From Candidatus Magasanikiibacteriota bacterium (GTDB lineage: Bacteria > Patescibacteriota > Patescibacteriia > Magasanikbacterales > UBA922): a DNA stretch of 64,000 nt. The stretch is from assembly GCA_014729395.1 (NCBI GenBank), contig WJJZ01000010.1:23901-87900 (forward strand). Reading direction: 5' to 3'. Positions 2,176 to 60,954 of the stretch are shown here, piece by piece. The stretch's first letter is position 1; the number at the start of each line of letters is the position of its first letter. The notes beneath the pieces are model-generated. The model made no database searches. It saw only the letters and a list, made by a program, of their open reading frames with translations, and had not been told where the DNA came from. A program made the position numbers and the translations under genes.

Positions 2176-2589
2176 ATGGCCGACTGCTTTACAAAAGAAA
2201 AAAGGAGTGAAGTAATGTCGAAAATAAGAAGCAAAGAGACTGAAATAGAAAAAATGGTATTCAGACACTTGAGAAAAAATAAAATTTATTTTCAAAAGCA
2301 CTATAACAAGGCTCCTGGCAAACCCGACATTGCACTACCCCAAAAAAAGAAAGCTGTATTTATTGACGGCGACTTTTGGCATGGCTGGCAATTTTCAAAG
2401 AAAAAAAGAAAACTGCCCAAAAAGTATTGGTTACAAAAGATTGAAGGCAATATCAAGCGTGATAAAAAAAATCGCGCTAAGCTTAAGCGGGATGGGTGGA
2501 AAGTTTTAAGGGTTTGGGAGCATCAATTAAAAAAAGAGGGGGGAAAATATCTGGAAAAAATTACTAAATTTTTAAAAAATTCAATATGA
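2176..2589 (+). CDS. vsr: Very short patch repair endonuclease Vsr (T:G mismatch endonuclease partnered with m5C methylases)
   Basis: TKEKRSEVMSKIRSK N-terminus plus PGKPDIALP and FIDGDFWHGW motifs characteristic of Vsr; divergent from the C5-MTase. Confidence 0.8.
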   Translation: MADCFTKEKRSEVMSKIRSKETEIEKMVFRHLRKNKIYFQKHYNKAPGKPDIALPQKKKAVFIDGDFWHGWQFSKKKRKLPKKYWLQKIEGNIKRDKKNRAKLKRDGWKVLRVWEHQLKKEGGKYLEKITKFLKNSI

Positions 2590-2595
2590 AAAAAT

Positions 2596-3492
2596 ATGAT
2601 TACCTCTCACTATGCGTTCTCAGATGACTCTTGTCATGTCAATGGAAGATATAATAGCCTTGCTCTGGTCAGCCTTCAAAAAAAAGACCTAGAAGCAATT
2701 TCGAATTCATTTGTGGAACTACTTAATGAGTCTGGAATAAAAAAAGAATTTAAATGGGAAAAAGTAAAAAATGCAAAATATCGTTTAGCAGGCGAGAAAA
2801 TTATAAATTTAGTATTTAAATATCAAGCAAAATTAAGAATAGATGTTGTTATCTGGGATTTGGAAGATCAGCGTCATAAAAACATAAAAGGTTGTGATGA
2901 TGCAGAAAATTTAGTTAGAATGTATTATCATTTGGTTTCAACAACTCTTTCACGAAAATGGCCAGTGGCTAATAATTGTTGGCGGTGGCATCCAGACAAA
3001 CAATCTTCTGTATGTTGGAATTTATTGCAGGATTGTATAACTACAAAAAAACATCATCGCACTGCGGATTTATTAAATCAAAATCCAAATTTTGAACAAG
3101 TTAATCTAAAAAGTGTAATACCATCGGAATCATGTAAATATCCATTGATACAGCTAGCAGATTTATTTGCTGGAATGGGCTCATATTCTTATGGCCACAA
3201 TGAATTATATAAAATTTGGAAAAATCAAAATACACGACAAATATCCATGTTTGATGTACCAAAACATAAATTTAGCAATGGAGAAATGGAAAAATTCACT
3301 TTGTTGAGTAAATTTGATAAAATATCTAAAGAAAACAAATTAAAAATTGCCTTACTATCAACCTGCGGATTAAAATCACATAATCCGAACTGTTTTGTTA
3401 ACTTTTGGCCGTACACTCCACAACACAAGTTTGACAAAGCACCAACGAAAATTAGAATGTGTGATTGTTATCGAAAAGATTCACCCCTTTAA
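2596..3492 (+). CDS. DUF3800-family protein
   Basis: Size about 300 aa and a QLADLFAG motif typical of DUF3800. Embedded in the R-M/Mrr cluster. Confidence 0.45.
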   Translation: MITSHYAFSDDSCHVNGRYNSLALVSLQKKDLEAISNSFVELLNESGIKKEFKWEKVKNAKYRLAGEKIINLVFKYQAKLRIDVVIWDLEDQRHKNIKGCDDAENLVRMYYHLVSTTLSRKWPVANNCWRWHPDKQSSVCWNLLQDCITTKKHHRTADLLNQNPNFEQVNLKSVIPSESCKYPLIQLADLFAGMGSYSYGHNELYKIWKNQNTRQISMFDVPKHKFSNGEMEKFTLLSKFDKISKENKLKIALLSTCGLKSHNPNCFVNFWPYTPQHKFDKAPTKIRMCDCYRKDSPL

Positions 3493-3532
3493 ACCTTCTC
3501 CCTCTATAATTAGAAAAAATAAATAATAAAAT

Positions 3533-4429
3533 ATGTCAATGCCAAAATTTGAAGAAACTATGCTACCAATACTCAAAGTTTTACGAAACGAAAAAGTTAT
3601 GTCTATGCAAGAACTAGCTGACGAACTCTTAGAAAACTACTTTAACTTAACAGAAGAAGAAAAGAAAGAGACTGTCTCAAATGGGTACAGTCGCTTTTTT
3701 GATCGTGTCAGCTGGGGGAGAACATATTTAAAAAAGGCCGGCTTATTAGAACAACCAGAGAGAAGCAAAGTTAAAATAACAAAAGAAGGTATAAAGGTTG
3801 TTTCATCTGGGATAGATGCAATTGATGTAAATTTTTTAAATCAGTACCCTTCGTTCATCGCTTTTTTAGCAGGAGGTAAACAAAAAACAAAACAAGAGGT
3901 GGGAGAAGCTATCATAAAGCAATTTTCTCCACAAGATATGGTTGATTTAGGTTTTCAAGATATCCAAGAAACATTAAAAAGCGATCTTTTGGAAAAGTTG
4001 TATAGTACAAATCCCTACTTTTTTGAAAAGGTGGTTTTAATTTTATTTCAAAAAATGGGGTATGGAGATTTTCAGGAAACATCAAAAACTGGAGATGGCG
4101 GTATAGATGGCATAATTAGTCAGGATAAATTAGGGCTAGAAAAAATATTTATTCAAGCAAAAAGATATGCTGAAGATAACAAAGTTAGAGAACCAGCAAT
4201 TAGAAATTTTATAGGTGCGATGAGTCGCGACGTTAGTAAGGGTATTTTTGTTACAACATCCACCTTTGATGAAGCAGCTGTTAAGAAAGCACGAGACGCA
4301 AACCATAAAATAATTTTGATTGATGGAGAAAAATTGACAGAATTGATGATAAAAAATAGTGTTGGCGTTCAAGTTAAAACGGTATATCAAGTAAAGGAAA
4401 TCGATAATGATTTCTTTGAAGAAGGGTAA
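3533..4429 (+). CDS. mrr: Mrr-family type IV (modification-dependent) restriction endonuclease
   Basis: N-terminal winged-helix region followed by the Mrr catalytic core: GDGGIDGII, IFIQAKRY, GIFVTTSTFD and ILIDGEKL. Confidence 0.8.
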   Translation: MSMPKFEETMLPILKVLRNEKVMSMQELADELLENYFNLTEEEKKETVSNGYSRFFDRVSWGRTYLKKAGLLEQPERSKVKITKEGIKVVSSGIDAIDVNFLNQYPSFIAFLAGGKQKTKQEVGEAIIKQFSPQDMVDLGFQDIQETLKSDLLEKLYSTNPYFFEKVVLILFQKMGYGDFQETSKTGDGGIDGIISQDKLGLEKIFIQAKRYAEDNKVREPAIRNFIGAMSRDVSKGIFVTTSTFDEAAVKKARDANHKIILIDGEKLTELMIKNSVGVQVKTVYQVKEIDNDFFEEG

Positions 4430-12344: not shown

Positions 12345-14924
12345 ATGATCCAATTTACCGGATCTCCGGTTTCACAATCATTTTCCAACAACGCCGGGAT
12401 ACTTAACGATCCACTTTTTTTCTATGCAATTATAGCTGTTGTCAGCATATTCATATTTCTATCATTTCTTTTCATTTTAAGAGCTTTATTACGGTTTAAA
12501 TCCAGACAAAGCAAAGCATTTAATCGAGTTGTACTGCAAATAACCGTACCAAAAGAAAAAAAATCTGAGGGTACCGGCGGCCAAGGTTCTCAAGAAGACA
12601 GACTGGAACAAATAAAAGAAGAAATAGGTCTGACTGAAACGGTTTTTGCGGCTATTGCCGGTATAAAGCCACAGGGAGGCATCAGTAGCTGGCTGCGCGG
12701 CAGAAACGACCACACCAGTTTTGAGATGGTAATGCATGAAGGTTTGATATACTTTTATGTTTCCGTTCCCGACAGAATGCATAGCTTCATTGAACAGCAA
12801 ATTCATGCTCAATACCCTTATGCTCATATTGAAAAAATGAGTGATTATAATATTTTTTCAAAAAACAGTTCTATTGTCGGAGCATATCTAAAAAGTAGCG
12901 CCCCGGCCGTTTTCCCGCTAAAAACATACAAATCCATGGAAGCCGACCCTCTATCGACCATTCTCAACGTCTTGGCGAAAGTCAGAGAAAATAACAGCTC
13001 GGCTGCCATTCAATTTACGGTCAGACCGGCGAATAAAAACTGGCGCAGCAAAGGAGTCAGCATCGTAAGAGAAGTAAAAAAAGGAAAAAAATTCGAAGAC
13101 GTAGTATCCGGCTCCAAATTTATGAAGGCCCTGAAAATAGTTGGCCAAGGAGTTGGAGAGCAAGTAAAAAGCCCGGAAACTCTTCAGAGAGAAAAAGACA
13201 AAGATCATTACCAACTTTCCGCCATGGAAGAAGAGATGCTAAAAGGCATTGAGGAAAAAATATCCAAAGGTGGAATGCAAGCTACAATCAGGCTTATAAG
13301 TGTATCAGACGATGAAAGTACCGCTCGATTGAATTTAGACAATCTAATAAATGCCTTTTCTCAATTTAATTTGTATAGATATGGAGCCAGTTTTAAAGCG
13401 ATTGTACCCAAAACCCAGTCAAAACTGATCAGAGACTTTATTTACCGATCCTTTAGTGAAAAATACAACATGATTCTAAATACGGAGGAAATGTCCAGTT
13501 TATGGCATTTACCTCTTCACTCTACCGAAGCACCAAATATAAAGTGGCTAACAGGTCGAAAGGCTCCCCCACCCCCGAATATACCGACAGAAGGACTTTT
13601 AATCGGTTTTGTAGAGTATCGAGGACAAAAAACAAATATTTATATGAAAGAAGCCGATAGACGCCGTCATATGTATTTAATCGGTAAGTCCGGTGGTGGT
13701 AAATCCGTATTTATTGCCAAAATGGCTGTCCAAGATATCCATAATGGCAAGGGCGTCTGTGTGGTAGATCCTCATGGTGATTTGGTAGAATATGTTTTGA
13801 GTCACATTCCAAAAGAGAGAGCTGACGATGTTATTATTTTTGATCCTTCCGATGTGGAGCGCCCGATCGGTCTAAACATGCTAGAGGCAAAATCTGAAGA
13901 CCAAAAAGATTTTGCGGTGCAAGAAATGATTTCCATTTTTTACAAACTCTTCCCTCCTGAAATGATCGGCCCCATGTTTGAACATAATATGCGAAATGTC
14001 ATGCTGACTTTGATGGCTGATTTGAAAAATCCGGGAACTGTAATTGATATTCCTCGCATGTTTACGGATGACGAATATGTAAAAAAATATTTGGCAAAGC
14101 TGAAAGATCCGGTTGTACGAGCGTTTTGGGAAAAAGAAATGGCAAAAACAAGTGATTTTCATAAATCAGAAATGCTTGGTTATCTTATTTCCAAAGTCGG
14201 CCGTTTTGTGGAAAATGAAATGATGAGAAATATAATGGGCCAGCAAAAATCGGGTTTTGACTTCCGAGAAGTAATGGACCAAAACAAAATATTGCTTGTG
14301 AACTTAGCCAAAGGTAAAACCGGAGAAGTTAATGCCAAACTGCTTGGCCTGATTGTTGTAGCAAAACTGCAAATGGCCGCTTTGGCAAGAGCTGATATGC
14401 CCGAAGAACAAAGAGATGATTTTTATTTATATATAGATGAGTTTCAAAACTTTGTTACTGATTCCATTTCCACTATCCTCTCTGAAGCCAGAAAATATAA
14501 ACTAAATTTAATTATCGCCCATCAATACATGGGCCAGTTGACAGATGATAAAGGACGAGCTGATATTAGAGACGCAGTCTTGGGTAATGCCGGTACGATT
14601 TGTTCAGCCAGGATAGGTCCGGACGACGCTGAAATACTGGCAAAAGAATTTGCTCCGACCTTTGGTTCCTATGATCTTTTGAATGCTCCCGAATATTCTT
14701 GGTATACAAAGATGTTAATTGATAATACAGCCTCCAAACCGTTCTTAATGCAAACTTTCCCACCGGAAGAAGGTAGTACAGAGCTCGGCTCGGCCATCAA
14801 AGAATTATCAAGATTAAAATTTGGTCGAGACCGTCGTATTGTTGAAGCGGAAATAATGGATCGTACCAAAATCGGACAGCCCGAAAGCCAAGGCAACACA
14901 GAAGCGGCAGAAGCCAGCCTGTGA
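12345..14924 (+). CDS. VirD4/TraD/TraG-family (FtsK/HerA superfamily) P-loop ATPase with N-terminal TM segment
   Basis: Walker A GKSGGGKS, Walker B LYIDEFQNF, an N-terminal TM helix, and size 859 aa. Matches what is usually annotated as a type IV secretion system DNA-binding domain protein in CPR genomes. Confidence 0.6.
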   Translation: MIQFTGSPVSQSFSNNAGILNDPLFFYAIIAVVSIFIFLSFLFILRALLRFKSRQSKAFNRVVLQITVPKEKKSEGTGGQGSQEDRLEQIKEEIGLTETVFAAIAGIKPQGGISSWLRGRNDHTSFEMVMHEGLIYFYVSVPDRMHSFIEQQIHAQYPYAHIEKMSDYNIFSKNSSIVGAYLKSSAPAVFPLKTYKSMEADPLSTILNVLAKVRENNSSAAIQFTVRPANKNWRSKGVSIVREVKKGKKFEDVVSGSKFMKALKIVGQGVGEQVKSPETLQREKDKDHYQLSAMEEEMLKGIEEKISKGGMQATIRLISVSDDESTARLNLDNLINAFSQFNLYRYGASFKAIVPKTQSKLIRDFIYRSFSEKYNMILNTEEMSSLWHLPLHSTEAPNIKWLTGRKAPPPPNIPTEGLLIGFVEYRGQKTNIYMKEADRRRHMYLIGKSGGGKSVFIAKMAVQDIHNGKGVCVVDPHGDLVEYVLSHIPKERADDVIIFDPSDVERPIGLNMLEAKSEDQKDFAVQEMISIFYKLFPPEMIGPMFEHNMRNVMLTLMADLKNPGTVIDIPRMFTDDEYVKKYLAKLKDPVVRAFWEKEMAKTSDFHKSEMLGYLISKVGRFVENEMMRNIMGQQKSGFDFREVMDQNKILLVNLAKGKTGEVNAKLLGLIVVAKLQMAALARADMPEEQRDDFYLYIDEFQNFVTDSISTILSEARKYKLNLIIAHQYMGQLTDDKGRADIRDAVLGNAGTICSARIGPDDAEILAKEFAPTFGSYDLLNAPEYSWYTKMLIDNTASKPFLMQTFPPEEGSTELGSAIKELSRLKFGRDRRIVEAEIMDRTKIGQPESQGNTEAAEASL

Positions 14925-14967
14925 TAATTAAAAATTTAAAATTATAAATGCAAAATAATTTTATCTG

Positions 14968-14985
14968 TTTTGCATTTTTAATTTA
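14968..14985. repeat. 18-bp direct repeat, copy 1 (TTTTGCATTTTTAATTTA)
   Basis: Exact copy at 15401-15418 flanking the other side of the four-helix-bundle gene. An adjacent 8-bp inverted repeat atgcaaaa..ttttgcat lies at 14948-14975. Confidence 0.7.
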
Positions 14986-14991
14986 ATAAAA

Positions 14992-15372
14992 ATGACAAAA
15001 ATATCCAAAAATGAAGGAGTTCATTTTACAAAAATTGACATCTGGCAAAGAAGTTTTAATTTTGCAATTAAAATTATCCAATTATGTGATACACTACCAA
15101 ATAACCAAAAAACATGGATATTAACAAGACAAATTATTCGTTCATCGACATCAATTTCAGCAAATTTAGCAGAAGGTAGTGGTGGAAGCACTAAAAAAGA
15201 ATTTATTCGCTATGCAGATATATCTAGAAAATCTGCACTTGAAACATATAATTGGCTATTATTTATTGAAAAAATTTTTAAATTAAGTGAAATTAACTCT
15301 GAAATCAAAAAAGAAAATGTTGAGATAATAAAAATTCTAAGTAAAATTGTAATAAATTCTAAAAAAAGTTAA
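14992..15372 (+). CDS. Four-helix-bundle protein (23S rRNA intervening-sequence protein family)
   Basis: SISANLAEGSG..S.KEF..Y..IS..SA.E core typical of TIGR02436-type proteins; size 126 aa. Confidence 0.75.
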   Translation: MTKISKNEGVHFTKIDIWQRSFNFAIKIIQLCDTLPNNQKTWILTRQIIRSSTSISANLAEGSGGSTKKEFIRYADISRKSALETYNWLLFIEKIFKLSEINSEIKKENVEIIKILSKIVINSKKS

Positions 15373-15400
15373 AAATATATATTTTGTGAGTTATTTTGCA

Positions 15401-15418
15401 TTTTGCATTTTTAATTTA
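15401..15418. repeat. 18-bp direct repeat, copy 2 (TTTTGCATTTTTAATTTA)
   Basis: Exact match to 14968-14985. Confidence 0.7.
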
Positions 15419-15525
15419 TAATTTTAATTCACATCTTATTCCCATTTCTTCCCCTGTTTATCTTGTCAAAAGACAAAAAAAATTGCATACTTAATGGCAC
15501 AAACTAAAAATAAACATAAAAAAAT

Positions 15526-16275
15526 ATGAACTCGATCTCGGATATAATTTCGGACAAGTCTGACGATATAGCTGATGAAAATACAGGCAATACTGACTCA
15601 AAAACAATGGATTACTCAACAAATTTTTTACAAAACCAACCTGACGCACCGACTACTCCACCCCATCAAGACAGTATCAGCACACCGGCCACTGAACTTG
15701 ATGATCAAACTGATACAGATAGTCATGGTCAGGATAATATTAATACAAATAAAAACGAAAACCCAAATATTGATATAATAAAAAATAAATTATACCGATT
15801 AAAAGACGAGCTTGACTCTATAATCCGAACACTCGATAAAAACACGATATCCGAAAACACAAGTTCCAATAAAACCGATCCGGATGAAAAAATACTGGAA
15901 AGTGGTGAAAGGATTGTTGAAGGAGTGTTTGACGGAGAAAAAATGATTGGACCCGATGGCAAAGAGTATTCCGTACCTCCGAACTATGCCAGTAAATCCA
16001 AATTGGTTGAAGGAGATATGATGAAGCTTACCATCACCAATAATGGATCATTTATTTATAAACAGATCGGACCGGTGGAAAGAGATAGACTAGTGGGTGA
16101 AATAGTCGCTTTGGAAAATGATGAATACAGCGCTCTGTGTGAAGGAAAAACATATAAGATATTAACCGCATCAGTTACTTTTTATAAAGGAAAATCCGGT
16201 GATGAAGTTGTGTTGCTTGTACCAAAAGACGGCTCCAGTAATTGGGCCGCTGTGGAAAACATTATATCTTGCTAA
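15526..16275 (+). CDS. Hypothetical protein with acidic low-complexity N-terminus
   Basis: ORF only. Confidence 0.35.
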   Translation: MNSISDIISDKSDDIADENTGNTDSKTMDYSTNFLQNQPDAPTTPPHQDSISTPATELDDQTDTDSHGQDNINTNKNENPNIDIIKNKLYRLKDELDSIIRTLDKNTISENTSSNKTDPDEKILESGERIVEGVFDGEKMIGPDGKEYSVPPNYASKSKLVEGDMMKLTITNNGSFIYKQIGPVERDRLVGEIVALENDEYSALCEGKTYKILTASVTFYKGKSGDEVVLLVPKDGSSNWAAVENIISC

Positions 16276-16277
16276 GT

Positions 16278-18062
16278 TCAAGTATAAATTATATCTGCCG
16301 CTCTTTGTTTGGAACCGCGTAATATCATCACATCTTTCTTTTCTCCATCAATTTCACGTTCGCCTATTTTAATAGGCCAACTCTTATCGTCAGCATAATA
16401 ATCCATTGGTGAAATTCCGTAATTATACGGAAATATTTTTTTTAATAAAGTCTTCCAAGTTAAAGCATCTTCCTCTTGCATTACGGTTGAAAACTTATTC
16501 AATGACTCCGAAACTTCTCTGTATACTTTATTCCCTTCTTCGGACATACTAATAACTGTTGGTAATTTTAAATCGCTGATTACCTGAAGTAATTCGGTGA
16601 CTGCTTCTCTGCCATCCTTTTGTTTGCTGATTTCCAAAATTTTCTTTACAACTTCTTTTACTAATTTTTCAATCAATAAGCTGAATGTATTGTCTTTATT
16701 TTTACTGCCTTTACAAAAATCATTAACAAATGTAAGTTTATCAAGGTCATTTTTCTCCATTGCTCTTTCCGCCAAAACATCAGCCAGTTCATTTACTTCC
16801 AAACTATTCTCATCTTTCTTATCATATTCATCACCGATTGTAATCAGGTCTTCGTTGCCGTGAGTGTTTAAGTAAATTACAGAATCACCTTCGCTATATT
16901 TTATAAAATTCAATATGCCATTTACATATTTATCCGCCTTGCCACCGGAAGCGGCATCTAAAAGACTTATTTTTTCCACTCCGGCCGCCTTTATACTTTC
17001 TTCGATCTGTAAAATATCAAACTCGGGTATATAATTTCCATATTCGTCTACATCCAATTTTTTTGAACCATAACCGAATAAAAGAAAATTGTTTGTTTCA
17101 GGACCAAAAATCTCTTTTTCATTTTCTAATAAATTATTATAATCTTGCAATTCCTCCATCAATAATGACGGTAAATGTTCTTCGTCTTCATCTAAAAAGC
17201 GTCTTTTGACTATTGCCTTTTTCAACAATAAATAGGATTCAGCCAGTTTTAAATTATTTTCACTTGATTGCAAAATTTTTCTAATCTCTGGGTTGTCCAA
17301 ACTATTTCTAAATTCCGCCATTTTTTCTTTGTCAGACCAACCCGGATACTCGGTAATATTAGCTTTGATCTCTTGTTTTGAATACCTTGCACTCAAATTT
17401 CTTGGTCTATAATTTAAATTCCTTCTCGGGTCAATTTCCCAGGATTCGATCTCGTCTGATTTCGGTAAAAAATCAGTACTATAAACACTGCCATGTTCAT
17501 ACGGCAAAACGTCTCTATCTATTACGCTCCTTTTCTTGTCATACATTTGTTTTTTTGAGAAAAATTCATATACAAAATGGTGACAACCTAAATCAGCCAA
17601 GTGTCTGTAGATTTCATTCAGCCTGTCAAATGTACTGGCATCCAGCCCCTCTTCATAATCCAATTCATATGCTTTTTCCAAAAATCCGGAAATATTGCCG
17701 CCAAGTTTGTCTGACATGATTTTTTTTATCTCCAATTCATTTTCAACCGTTCTTTCAAGCTTTGAGCCGTAATTTCTATTTGTCTCATGCACCAATCCTT
17801 CTAAAAGTTCCTTATATTCTTTAAATTCAGCTTCGGTCATTTCTTTTTCTGATATAAATTCAACCAACCTCTCCAAATACGGCCCTAACGTGCCGGCTCC
17901 AATTGCTGCACCGGCCGCTCCATAACCCATTAATTTCAAAAATTTGCGTCGACTCATGTCCGCTTCGGGTGTTTTTTCAATTTTTTTCTCTTCAACATTT
18001 TCTACATCCTCTGATATCTTTTCCCAGTTCTTTTTTCCAAATATTTTTTCAAAAAAGGCCAT
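16278..18062 (-). CDS. Secreted protein with twin-arginine (Tat) signal; caspase-like Cys peptidase signature possible
   Basis: MSRRKFLKLMGYGAAGAAIGAGTL Tat signal at residues 36-60, so the true start is probably near 17957. An HG (YLNTHGNE) followed about 50 aa later by DFCKGS resembles a clostripain/caspase-type His-Cys dyad. Confidence 0.45.
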   Translation of the reverse strand: MAFFEKIFGKKNWEKISEDVENVEEKKIEKTPEADMSRRKFLKLMGYGAAGAAIGAGTLGPYLERLVEFISEKEMTEAEFKEYKELLEGLVHETNRNYGSKLERTVENELEIKKIMSDKLGGNISGFLEKAYELDYEEGLDASTFDRLNEIYRHLADLGCHHFVYEFFSKKQMYDKKRSVIDRDVLPYEHGSVYSTDFLPKSDEIESWEIDPRRNLNYRPRNLSARYSKQEIKANITEYPGWSDKEKMAEFRNSLDNPEIRKILQSSENNLKLAESYLLLKKAIVKRRFLDEDEEHLPSLLMEELQDYNNLLENEKEIFGPETNNFLLFGYGSKKLDVDEYGNYIPEFDILQIEESIKAAGVEKISLLDAASGGKADKYVNGILNFIKYSEGDSVIYLNTHGNEDLITIGDEYDKKDENSLEVNELADVLAERAMEKNDLDKLTFVNDFCKGSKNKDNTFSLLIEKLVKEVVKKILEISKQKDGREAVTELLQVISDLKLPTVISMSEEGNKVYREVSESLNKFSTVMQEEDALTWKTLLKKIFPYNYGISPMDYYADDKSWPIKIGEREIDGEKKDVMILRGSKQRAADIIYT

Positions 18063-59096: not shown

Positions 59097-60542
59097 ATGC
59101 CCGACATCACCGACATAGAAAAAATTCCCCCACAAAACCTGGAAGCGGAAATGTCTTTACTGGGCTCTATTTTGCTTGATAAAGATGCTATGATAAAAAT
59201 TGCCGATATGGTTGATATGGCTGATTTTTACAGTAATGCCAATGCAAACATATTTGAAACCATGACCGAATTGTACAATAAAAATGAGGTTATTGATGTA
59301 TTAACTTTAGGTAACAGATTGGAAGAAAAAGGCTTATTAAAAAAAATAGGCGGACGCAGCTATTTGGTAGAATTATCAAATACTACACCAACCGCCACTC
59401 ATATAAAACAATACGCTGAAATAATTAGACGCAAGTCCACATTAAGAAAATTATTAAAGGCTGCGCATGAAATTACGGGCTTGGGCTACAAAGAAGATGT
59501 TGAGGATGTTGATTCTTTATTGGACGAAGCTCAACAATCTATTTATTCAGTCACACAAAAGCATCTTAAAAAAACATTCTCACCCATTAGAGGTGTATTA
59601 AATAATGCATTTGAAAGAATTGATGAATTACACCGAGAAAAAGGTAAATTACGCGGTGTACCGACAGGTTTTTCACAACTTGATAATCTGTTGGCCGGTA
59701 TGCAGAAATCAGATCTCATAATTTTGGCGGCCAGGCCCTCTGTTGGTAAAACCGCCTTTGTCTTGGACATTGCCAGAAATGTTGCTGTCAGATCAAAAAA
59801 GACTGTTGGAATTTTTTCACTTGAAATGAGCAAGGAGCAGCTGGTAGATAGAATGCTTTGTGCGGAAGCGGGTGTTGATTTGTGGAAAATGAGAACGGGA
59901 AATTTGTCTGATAAACCGGGTAGTGATGATTTCCCCAAGATTGGTCAAGCAATGGGTGTTTTGTCAGAAGCTTCGGTGTTTATCGATGACACGCCCGGAA
60001 ATACAGTCATGCAAATACGAACCAAAGCCAGGCGACTCCAAGCTGAACACGGTCTGGGCCTAATGATAATCGACTATATGCAGCTCATGGAATCTCATTC
60101 AAGGCGATCATCGGATAGCCGAGTTCAAGAGGTGGCTGAAATGAGTAGAAATTTAAAGGGAATAGCCAGAGAATTGAATGTTCCGGTTCTGGCTTTGTCT
60201 CAGCTTTCTAGAGCTGTAGAACAAACAAAACCGGCCATACCAAAGTTGTCACATCTCCGTGAATCTGGTAGTATTGAACAAGATGCAGACGTTGTGATGT
60301 TTATATATAGAAAAGCGGCTGACCGTAATTATCGTCTTGAGGACATACCACCTGATGAAAGACATATCGCTGAAATTCATATTGCAAAGCATAGAAACGG
60401 GCCTACCGGACAGGTAAAATTATTCTTTGATGAAACCAGAGCCAGTTTCAAAAATCTGGATACGCATTTTGAAAAAACAGCCCCACCTCCACCGCAAAAT
60501 CAAGCAAAACCCCATTCAGAACCGGCAGTACCAAAGTTTTAA
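59097..60542 (+). CDS. dnaB: Replicative DNA helicase
   Basis: DnaB N-domain (NLEAEMSLLGSIL), Walker A ARPSVGKTAF, Walker B IIDYMQL and the arginine finger region. Confidence 0.9.
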   Translation: MPDITDIEKIPPQNLEAEMSLLGSILLDKDAMIKIADMVDMADFYSNANANIFETMTELYNKNEVIDVLTLGNRLEEKGLLKKIGGRSYLVELSNTTPTATHIKQYAEIIRRKSTLRKLLKAAHEITGLGYKEDVEDVDSLLDEAQQSIYSVTQKHLKKTFSPIRGVLNNAFERIDELHREKGKLRGVPTGFSQLDNLLAGMQKSDLIILAARPSVGKTAFVLDIARNVAVRSKKTVGIFSLEMSKEQLVDRMLCAEAGVDLWKMRTGNLSDKPGSDDFPKIGQAMGVLSEASVFIDDTPGNTVMQIRTKARRLQAEHGLGLMIIDYMQLMESHSRRSSDSRVQEVAEMSRNLKGIARELNVPVLALSQLSRAVEQTKPAIPKLSHLRESGSIEQDADVVMFIYRKAADRNYRLEDIPPDERHIAEIHIAKHRNGPTGQVKLFFDETRASFKNLDTHFEKTAPPPPQNQAKPHSEPAVPKF

Positions 60543-60651
60543 AAAGCCTAAAAAATCAGAAAGGCCAAAAAGGCTTGAAAGGCTCCGGTTACCAACCGTT
60601 TTGTAGCCTTTTAAGCATTTCCGGCATTTTAAGCCTTTTAAGTATTTATAT

Positions 60652-60954
60652 ATGTTCAACAAACTAAAACAATTTAAAGATTTACGCTCACAAGCAAAAG
60701 ATCTTCAAAGCAAATTAGCCGAAGAGACAATTACTGTTTCTGAAGCAGGTGGAAAAGTAAAAATGACCATGGATGGTAATCTAAAAATTACCGACTTGGA
60801 TATTGATAAAGAAATGCTGAATCCCGATAAAAAACAAAAACTTGAATCAGCCATTAAGGACGCCCATGCAAGTGCTACAAAGAAAATGCAAAGAACAATG
60901 GCGACCAAAATGAAAGAAATGGGCGGACTCCCGGAAATACCGGGAATGTCCTAA
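60652..60954 (+). CDS. ybaB: Nucleoid-associated protein YbaB/EbfC
   Basis: 100 aa; the KMQ..L...E..G.AGGG-V pattern of YbaB. Confidence 0.85.
   Translation: MFNKLKQFKDLRSQAKDLQSKLAEETITVSEAGGKVKMTMDGNLKITDLDIDKEMLNPDKKQKLESAIKDAHASATKKMQRTMATKMKEMGGLPEIPGMS

Follow-up and report, generated by a model that had tools for sequence, protein, structure and literature searches.

Coxiella burnetii has in its rRNA an intervening sequence (IVS) that is 428-444 nt long and is formed by a 28-bp stem of terminal inverted repeats with an open reading frame (ORF) for S23p, a protein of the PF05635 family, in its loop; RNase III cuts the stem in the middle, and the GC content lies below that of the genome (PMC4990558). 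PF05635 ORFs are also found in rRNA insertions of bacteria of the candidate phyla radiation (CPR) (PMC11270868). The origin, mobility and purpose of rRNA IVSs and of their conserved ORF were called unclear in the Coxiella study (PMC4990558). The same family includes free-standing genes, of which one for a four helix bundle protein has been described as accessory and strain-variable (PMC8700078), and Avd of the diversity-generating retroelements (DGRs), which has a homologous four-helix-bundle fold (PMC10053308). The present analysis concerns a four-helix-bundle (4HB) gene and the inverted arms that enclose it in a stretch of 64,000 nt, the window, from contig WJJZ01000010.1 of a member of Candidatus (Ca.) Magasanikbacteria (Patescibacteria/CPR).

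With a probability of about 0.6, the locus is an intervening-sequence-type hairpin cassette, in which the 4HB ORF occupies the loop of a long AT-rich stem in the mRNA operon spacer between a TraG-like gene and the downstream gene p249. It is an "IVS-type cassette in an mRNA operon" and is not called an IVS, because rRNA location, the defining trait of an IVS, is missing here, the only RNA gene detected with Rfam in the window being one tRNA. The enclosing stem, the sporadic presence and the deviant composition of an IVS are all found. Like the 23S rRNA IVSs of Coxiella and Leptospira, the cassette measures ~430-500 nt, has a stem of ~28-33 bp with a PF05635 ORF in the loop and a lowered GC content, would be co-transcribed with its host RNA (by read-through), and is sporadic among relatives, with short ORF-less hairpins at the same sites. 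Unlike them, it lies between two protein genes of a TraG-like operon and not in helix 9, 25 or 45 of 23S/16S rRNA, and it has an extra arm unit, which creates an 18-bp direct repeat. The 4HB homologue pairs are, furthermore, under purifying selection, whereas the abstract of the Coxiella study, as read here, says that its results suggest that S23p is not made. In a literature search that was itself incomplete, no flanking arms, anatomy or mobility mechanism were found described for family members outside rRNA; the present account of flanking arms that accompany the ORF, and of derivatives lacking the ORF, draws on 14-16 loci.

A PF05635 gene enclosed by inverted arms

The protein encoded in the loop (Table 1) matches PF05635 over profile positions 2-105 of 106 (E 2e-25; 89.4 bits, threshold 33.8) and, at 98.2 bits (threshold 24), TIGR02436, the "four helix bundle protein" profile. 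Two PDB entries of five chains each are related to it, 2RLD (E 1e-13) and 2GSC (E 2e-6), and in sequence membership and in a length of ~120 aa it resembles the free-standing TIGR02436/PF05635 genes that these entries represent. The GC content drops to 21-27% across the gene (0.23 for the gene as a whole) against 36-44% in the flanks and 0.35 for the window. Homologue pairs with unsaturated synonymous sites have a dN/dS of 0.10-0.13, indicating purifying selection; in the window's own gene these sites are saturated, and the values are those of closer homologue pairs only. The nearest homologue is 64% identical, no near-identical copies were met, and an exact-sequence look-up of the protein gave no contigs on record. 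The original prediction for this locus had proposed to look through the genome for paralogs inside rRNA operons; the 64-kb window contains no second 4HB gene and no rRNA.

Table 1. Positions (in the window) of the cassette, its parts and the adjoining host features.
Feature	Position	Strand	Remarks
TraG-like gene	12345-14924	+	VirD4/TraG-type coupling-protein ATPase, 859 aa; Pfam PF02534, PF10412, PF01935, PF12696
Left arm (IR-L)	14926-14958	+	AATTATAAATGCAAAA, a good unit, plus a degenerate one
Copy B of the 18-mer	14968-14985	+	extra right-arm-type unit in opposite orientation, 6 nt before the ATG; exact match
4HB gene	14992-15372	+	126 aa (381 bp); PF05635 / TIGR02436 (23S rRNA IVS protein / Avd-like)
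Right arm (IR-R)	15391-15423	+	holds the partial unit ATTTTGCA (15393-15400), followed by copy C of the 18-mer (15401-15418)
p249 leader	15427-15454	+	ATTCACATCTTATTCCCATTTCTTCCCC; first part of the conserved host spacer; right cassette boundary
Extended -10-like box	15484-15491	+	TGCATACT; promoter-like match TTGTCA-17-CATACT; outside the cassette
p249	15526-16275	+	downstream host gene, 249 aa; conserved in Magasanikbacteria

The two arms are 33 nt long, 85% complementary and enclose the 4HB gene, with a sub-pairing of 26 nt (14931-14956 with 15400-15425) that is 88% complementary. When 14921-15440 is folded as RNA, the arms pair around the ORF in both the minimum free energy (MFE) and the centroid structure. 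In the ensemble, the left arm pairs with the right arm at a probability of about 0.72-0.75 and with copy B, the unit lying between the left arm and the ORF, at 0.03-0.05. The forced alternative folds are near-degenerate, with -87.1 vs -86.0 kcal/mol.

The same architecture is found in other 4HB cassettes, which were taken from related loci, from the contigs of the closest homologues (46-64% identity) and from two cyanobacterial plasmids. The 70 nt upstream were aligned locally with the 70 nt downstream in reverse complement, and the resulting inverted-repeat score has a median of 31 in 14 cassettes as opposed to 13.5 in 1118 control genes (Mann-Whitney p=3e-10). All but one of these cassettes (13/14) score above the 95th percentile of the controls, and the cassette of the window reaches 41 (z 6.8). 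A flanking direct repeat longer than 10 nt is present in none of 15 other 4HB cassettes from Patescibacteria. The family signature of 4HB cassettes is the inverted arms, not the direct repeat. In nearly all of them, the left arm spans the interval from the stop codon of the neighbouring gene to the ATG and the right arm begins directly after the stop codon of the ORF; in the window, the TraG-like stop codon (14922-14924) abuts the left arm. All Patescibacteria cassettes with readable neighbours are co-directional with them, which fits expression by read-through.

Further 4HB cassettes occur in two other spacers of the same operon (L090:4467-4874, L034:4033-4377 and L111:2182-2526). Judged from flanking ORFs read by eye, one of these spacers separates a p183 homologue from the TraG-like gene and the other lies upstream of that homologue; here too the cassettes are co-directional, and their arms are of types of their own. 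In Anabaena cylindrica pANACY.01 (L178) and in a plasmid of Nostoc sp. TCL26-01 (L179), a 4HB gene lies between cas2 and cas1 on the opposite strand, flanked by arrays of AAAGT/ACTTT units. Within 70 nt, the inverted arms of these cyanobacterial cassettes score z 2.6 and 0.1, being weak or more distant, and an inverted-arm rule beyond Patescibacteria is only suggested.

Arms travel with the gene

The arms consist of reiterated units of 6-8 nt. In L170 they read (AATGCAA)x3 and (TTTGCAT)x3, and in L169 TGCTAAATGCCAAA and TTTGGCATTTAGCA, the changes relative to L170 being mirrored in both arms; L169 has a perfect 24-nt arm pair, AAATTTAAAATGCTAAATGCCAAA and TTTGGCATTTAGCATTTTAAATTT. Other unit types are ATGAAGT in L167 and CAAGT in L020. 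Since reiterated units make alignment-based covariation ambiguous, the fit between arms was measured with a matrix of scores within and between cassettes, and arms fit their own partner better than the partners of other cassettes (permutation p=5e-5).

Arm type tracks the clade of the 4HB protein and not the insertion site. Arms of the TGCAAAA type are found in the TraG-p249 spacer of the window and of L163, L169, L170 and L172, whose homologues are 56-62% identical to the window's gene, and also between rpsF and ssb in L161. Related genes in L173, L174 and L176, each at a different site, are accompanied by ATGTATAAT-type arms. The arms belong to the cassette and not to the host site.

A possibly rearranged relative was also met. 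The contig segment L171:1-935 encodes a 4HB protein identical to that of L170; on its left it is flanked by the p249 side of L170 in exact reverse complement (100% over 364 nt), its right flank is unrelated, and both breakpoints fall inside arm units. An inversion between the arms was considered for this segment and rejected, as the left junction fits and the unrelated right flank does not; it is either a real rearrangement at the arms or an assembly chimera.

The 18-bp direct repeat as the probable result of an extra arm unit

The original prediction had described two exact 18-mers, an 8-bp inverted repeat, a partial extra copy and a 381-bp four-helix-bundle gene, all of which are present where it had placed them. 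The 18-mer, TTTTGCATTTTTAATTTA, occurs exactly as copies B and C (Table 1) and nowhere else in the 64-kb window, and it is thus not a common motif there. The inverted repeat of ATGCAAAA (14948-14955) and TTTTGCAT (14968-14975), separated by N12 upstream of the ORF, extends to 17-nt arms that are 94% complementary (14939-14955 and 14968-14984). A third copy of the 18-mer, which had been overlooked, is inverted and lies on the minus strand at 14938-14955 with two mismatches.

The repeat exceeds chance, as had been claimed. Allowing up to three mismatches, the 18-mer has 8 matches against 1.8 +/- 1.3 in shuffles, and none of 100 shuffles reaches 8. Furthermore, for 1164 control genes, taken from the window and from 160 related loci, the 100-nt flanks on the two sides were compared for the longest direct repeat that they share exactly. 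Its median is 7 nt, and a repeat of at least 18 nt flanks two genes only, one being the 4HB gene of the window; the 18-bp repeat is real, because the 99th percentile of the controls is only 11 nt. The 27 single matches to the 18-mer in viral contigs, none of them near a 4HB gene, were judged to be chance.

The exact reverse complement of the 18-mer forms a left-arm unit abutting the ATG in L163, and the 18-mer is therefore the arm unit of the cassette. It is the right-arm unit, and the direct repeat arises since copy B adds an upstream copy in the "wrong" orientation. Copies B and C are identical, whereas the left arm differs from their complement at 2/18 positions, which indicates that an arm unit was recently copied or inverted to give copy B. 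No extra unit equivalent to copy B was found in the 15 other cassettes, and the 18-bp direct repeat is a lineage-specific detail. Copy B can form a local hairpin with the left arm (14939-14955 with 14968-14984) that has a 12-nt loop and a free energy of -14.7 kcal/mol (z -4.1). Its alternative partner is the start-codon region (14963-14980 with 14987-15004), and this pairing is also present in the MFE structure.

The right arm overlaps a promoter-like sequence upstream of p249, TTTGCA-16-TATAAT at 15395-15422 (10 of 12), and reiterated 6-8-nt units whose type co-varies with the 4HB protein clade resemble arrays of binding sites. The 18-mer and the arm units might then be operators, iterons or promoter elements before the 4HB gene and p249, by which a DNA- or RNA-binding protein, possibly a 4HB pentamer, regulates both genes. 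This is very unlikely, as none of the remaining ~60 intergenic regions in the window has the motif, a conserved leader and a -10 box belonging to p249 itself persist further downstream in loci with and without the cassette, and ORF-less hairpins of the same style occur where no 4HB protein is encoded nearby. No DNA-binding function was found in the literature for free-standing PF05635 proteins, and to our knowledge none is established. The duplicated promoter or operator proposed in the original prediction, taken as sigma-70-type, also proves weak and was rejected: copy B lacks a correctly spaced -10 and is not called as a promoter, so that a -35/-10 pair exists at the downstream copy only, no other copies occur in the window, and promoter-like sites are not enriched (8 vs 5.0 +/- 2.2 in shuffles).

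Filled, empty and ORF-less sites

The expectation that this is a small, discrete, insertion-like cassette is borne out by relatives without it and by the drop in GC content. The TraG-like gene has 160 orthologous loci in Ca. Magasanikbacteria (58-74% identity), and in ~50 of them it is directly followed by p249 with no 4HB gene between. Genome and metagenome scans gave no relative above 74% TraG identity, and for this reason the nucleotide-level empty-site comparison, which had been called for, was made with the sister cassette of L020. This locus (filled) and L096 (empty) share the same TraG-p249 spacer with flanks that are 85% identical in nucleotides, and what sets them apart is a block of ~470 nt that holds the ORF together with its two arms. 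In L096 the empty site reads TAGTACTCAAGT/ACTTGTCCACTC, with the 10-bp palindrome CAAGT/ACTTG at the junction; no target duplication is found in the filled site of L020 relative to it. L100:4339-4790 is a decaying, L020-type cassette (a pseudogene) with in-frame stop codons in the 4HB ORF and intact arms.

Many "empty" TraG-p249 spacers carry ORF-less hairpins of reiterated units (L081, L008, L035, L114, L044/L115/L116, L118, L120 and L051/L052), of which that of L008 has a perfect 30-bp stem (-36.8 kcal/mol). The ORF-less hairpins L118:7445-7645 and L044:8445-8591 differ by insertions of ~30 nt that are mirrored and mutually complementary, which suggests arm-to-arm templated copying at the DNA level and not two independent events. 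When the 433 bp between copies B and C of the window, one repeat plus 415 bp, are deleted in silico, a hairpin of the kind common at the relatives' spacer is obtained (-20.5 kcal/mol, z -5.5), so the direct repeat could be a substrate that converts an ORF-bearing cassette to an ORF-less hairpin.

The same deletion product would also be expected if a segment of ~415 bp with the ORF (14986-15400) had been inserted in the right arm of a pre-existing ORF-less hairpin, duplicating 18 bp of target, or if a circular intermediate had integrated and left an 18-bp core on each side. The original prediction had suggested insertion by site-specific or target-duplicating recombination, and the great rarity of an exact 18/18 repeat among the controls speaks for it. 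This explanation is nevertheless unlikely. The repeat is the right arm, the 15 other 4HB cassettes and the L020/L096 pair show no comparable duplication, and 18 bp is unusually long for the target-site duplication of an insertion sequence element. In L163, L169, L170 and L172, at the same spacer, TGCAAAA-type arms directly abut the ORF, which implies that the arms came with the ORF and did not pre-exist at the site, and arms of this type also occur between rpsF and ssb in L161. No transposase or integrase domain was found among the genes scanned between 2176 and 18062, and the only ORF of the cassette is the 4HB gene. A transposable element with target duplication was rejected on these grounds, the 18-mer being an arm unit. 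An integron gene cassette was likewise rejected: the ORF has repeats on either side, and neither a cassette array nor, in the neighbours scanned, an integrase was found.

An intergenic hairpin of similar style lies elsewhere in the window at 60539-60641, between the plus-strand ORFs 59097-60542 and 60652-60954. It has 42-nt arms of AAAAGGC-type units, 74% complementary, and a 19-nt loop.

Proposed processing of the cassette

As an IVS-type cassette in an mRNA operon, with arms built from reiterated AATGCAAAA/TTTTGCATT-type units, the locus would function as follows. The cassette would be transcribed by read-through of the operon, and its arms would form a double-stranded RNA stem of ~30-40 bp that RNase III may cut as it does in the ORF-bearing 23S rRNA IVSs, so that the 4HB message would be freed from the transcript of the operon. 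Copy B would have arisen by local inversion or duplication of an arm unit in this lineage only, and its pairing with the left arm would provide a local hairpin as an alternative state, with a possible regulatory role. Once the long-range stem has formed, copy B could instead pair with the AUG region and occlude the start codon. In the DNA, the 433 bp may be lost when copy B recombines with copy C, which would leave an ORF-less hairpin like those of the relatives.

Several observations weigh against this model. The fold of the whole element is only modestly better than that of shuffles (z -2.0), the stem being very AT-rich. The mismatches between the arms, few in number, comprise 3 G:U and 6 A:C and show no lean to pairing in the sense-strand RNA; arm complementarity could be kept by a DNA-level process such as hairpin-templated repair and not by selection on RNA. 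No RNase III signature motif was found in the window, which says nothing on the rest of the genome. The closest relative, at 74% TraG identity, limits how far the origin of copy B in this lineage can be traced. Furthermore, the left arm is complementary over 26 nt to copy C and its flank and over 17 nt to copy B, that is, 7-8 nt further, as target duplication would predict if copy B had been cut from the original flank.

The A:C and G:U counts, the mirrored arm insertions of L118 and L044 and the L171 breakpoints inside arm units also fit an element resembling a miniature inverted-repeat transposable element (MITE). Here the arms would be terminal inverted repeats that act as DNA in a non-autonomous element mobilized by a transposase encoded elsewhere, with the 4HB gene as cargo, copy B as a rearranged end and RNA structure of no relevance; the joint presence of arms and ORF at unrelated sites and the sporadic distribution agree with this. 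Such an element is very unlikely, given a filled/empty pair without target duplication, a single copy in 64 kb with the nearest homologue met anywhere only 64% identical, and arm sequences too diverse between cassettes for one transposase. Strict co-orientation with operons and arms abutting start and stop codons would also be unexpected of a cut-and-paste element. The cassettes resemble repetitive extragenic palindromes (REP), bacterial interspersed mosaic elements (BIME) and MITEs in being intergenic, imperfectly palindromic, strain-variable and located at the 3' ends of operon genes. They differ from these in having lineage-specific reiterated units and no genome-wide consensus, with no other copy of the unit in the window, and in that the hairpins can hold a conserved protein gene in the loop.

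Relation to retroelements and wider implications

The 4HB protein shares fold and family with Avd of DGRs, as introduced above. Unlike an Avd gene, its gene has the TraG-like gene and p249 as neighbours and not a reverse transcriptase; no template/variable repeat pair was found in 14000-16500, and the adjoining genes include no reverse transcriptase, for which the remainder of the window was not scanned. A DGR Avd component was ruled out from the neighbours and from the lack of a repeat pair nearby.

A broader proposal is speculative and distinctly unlikely as a whole. Hairpin elements made of PF05635 genes and their cognate arms would be a widespread class, with rRNA IVSs as its best-known special case. 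The elements would insert or arise in the loops of intergenic operon palindromes, be excised from transcripts at the stem, spread in the arm-ORF-arm form and decay to ORF-less hairpins, and an Avd-like pentamer would recognise the 6-8-nt units. Mobility might involve the excised RNA and a reverse transcriptase acting in trans. DGR reverse transcriptases are common in Patescibacteria. In DGRs, the reverse transcriptase uses a cofactor of the Avd type.

If the arm-ORF-arm unit lives in ordinary mRNA operons, rRNA location would be incidental and the hairpin cassette would be the defining unit. The filled, empty and ORF-less states at one conserved spacer would then be a natural series for the gain and loss of the element, and cleavage of the stem would split the operon transcript, with an effect on how the TraG-like gene and p249 are expressed. 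For the large, uncharacterised family of the "four helix bundle protein", its own arms would become a candidate nucleic-acid partner. The 18-bp direct repeat, for its part, may mark a route from an ORF-bearing cassette to an ORF-less hairpin.

Host genes and spacer

The TraG-like gene, the 4HB gene and p249 follow each other in this order on the plus strand; p249 matched no Pfam or NCBIfam family. The C-rich motif of the p249 leader follows the right arm or hairpin in L170, L169, L167, L081, L020, L096 and others. The box downstream of it is probably p249's own promoter, an assignment made from sequence; TGnTAnAnT boxes, judged by eye, occupy the equivalent place in L167, L170, L169, L080 and L111. 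A conserved C-rich leader (TTATCCCCCAT-like) precedes p249 in the window (15427-15491) as well as in L170, L169, L167, L080, L111 and L034. At several loci there follow a small GC hairpin, with its T-run, and a TGnTAnAnT box, which together look like a terminator/promoter pair between the TraG-like gene and p249.

The TraG-p249 spacer holds other, unrelated inserted genes in L001, L002, L005, L006, L016, L048 and L057. By sequence reading, these are a sigma-factor-like ORF of 308 aa, pilin-like ORFs and several membrane proteins; small insertions seem to have a general hotspot at this junction.

No match was obtained with the PADLOC defence-system models. Some 10 kb upstream of the cassette, at 2176-4429, genes for a Vsr-type mismatch endonuclease, a DUF3800 protein and an Mrr-type restriction endonuclease are clustered, in what looks like a small defence or restriction island.

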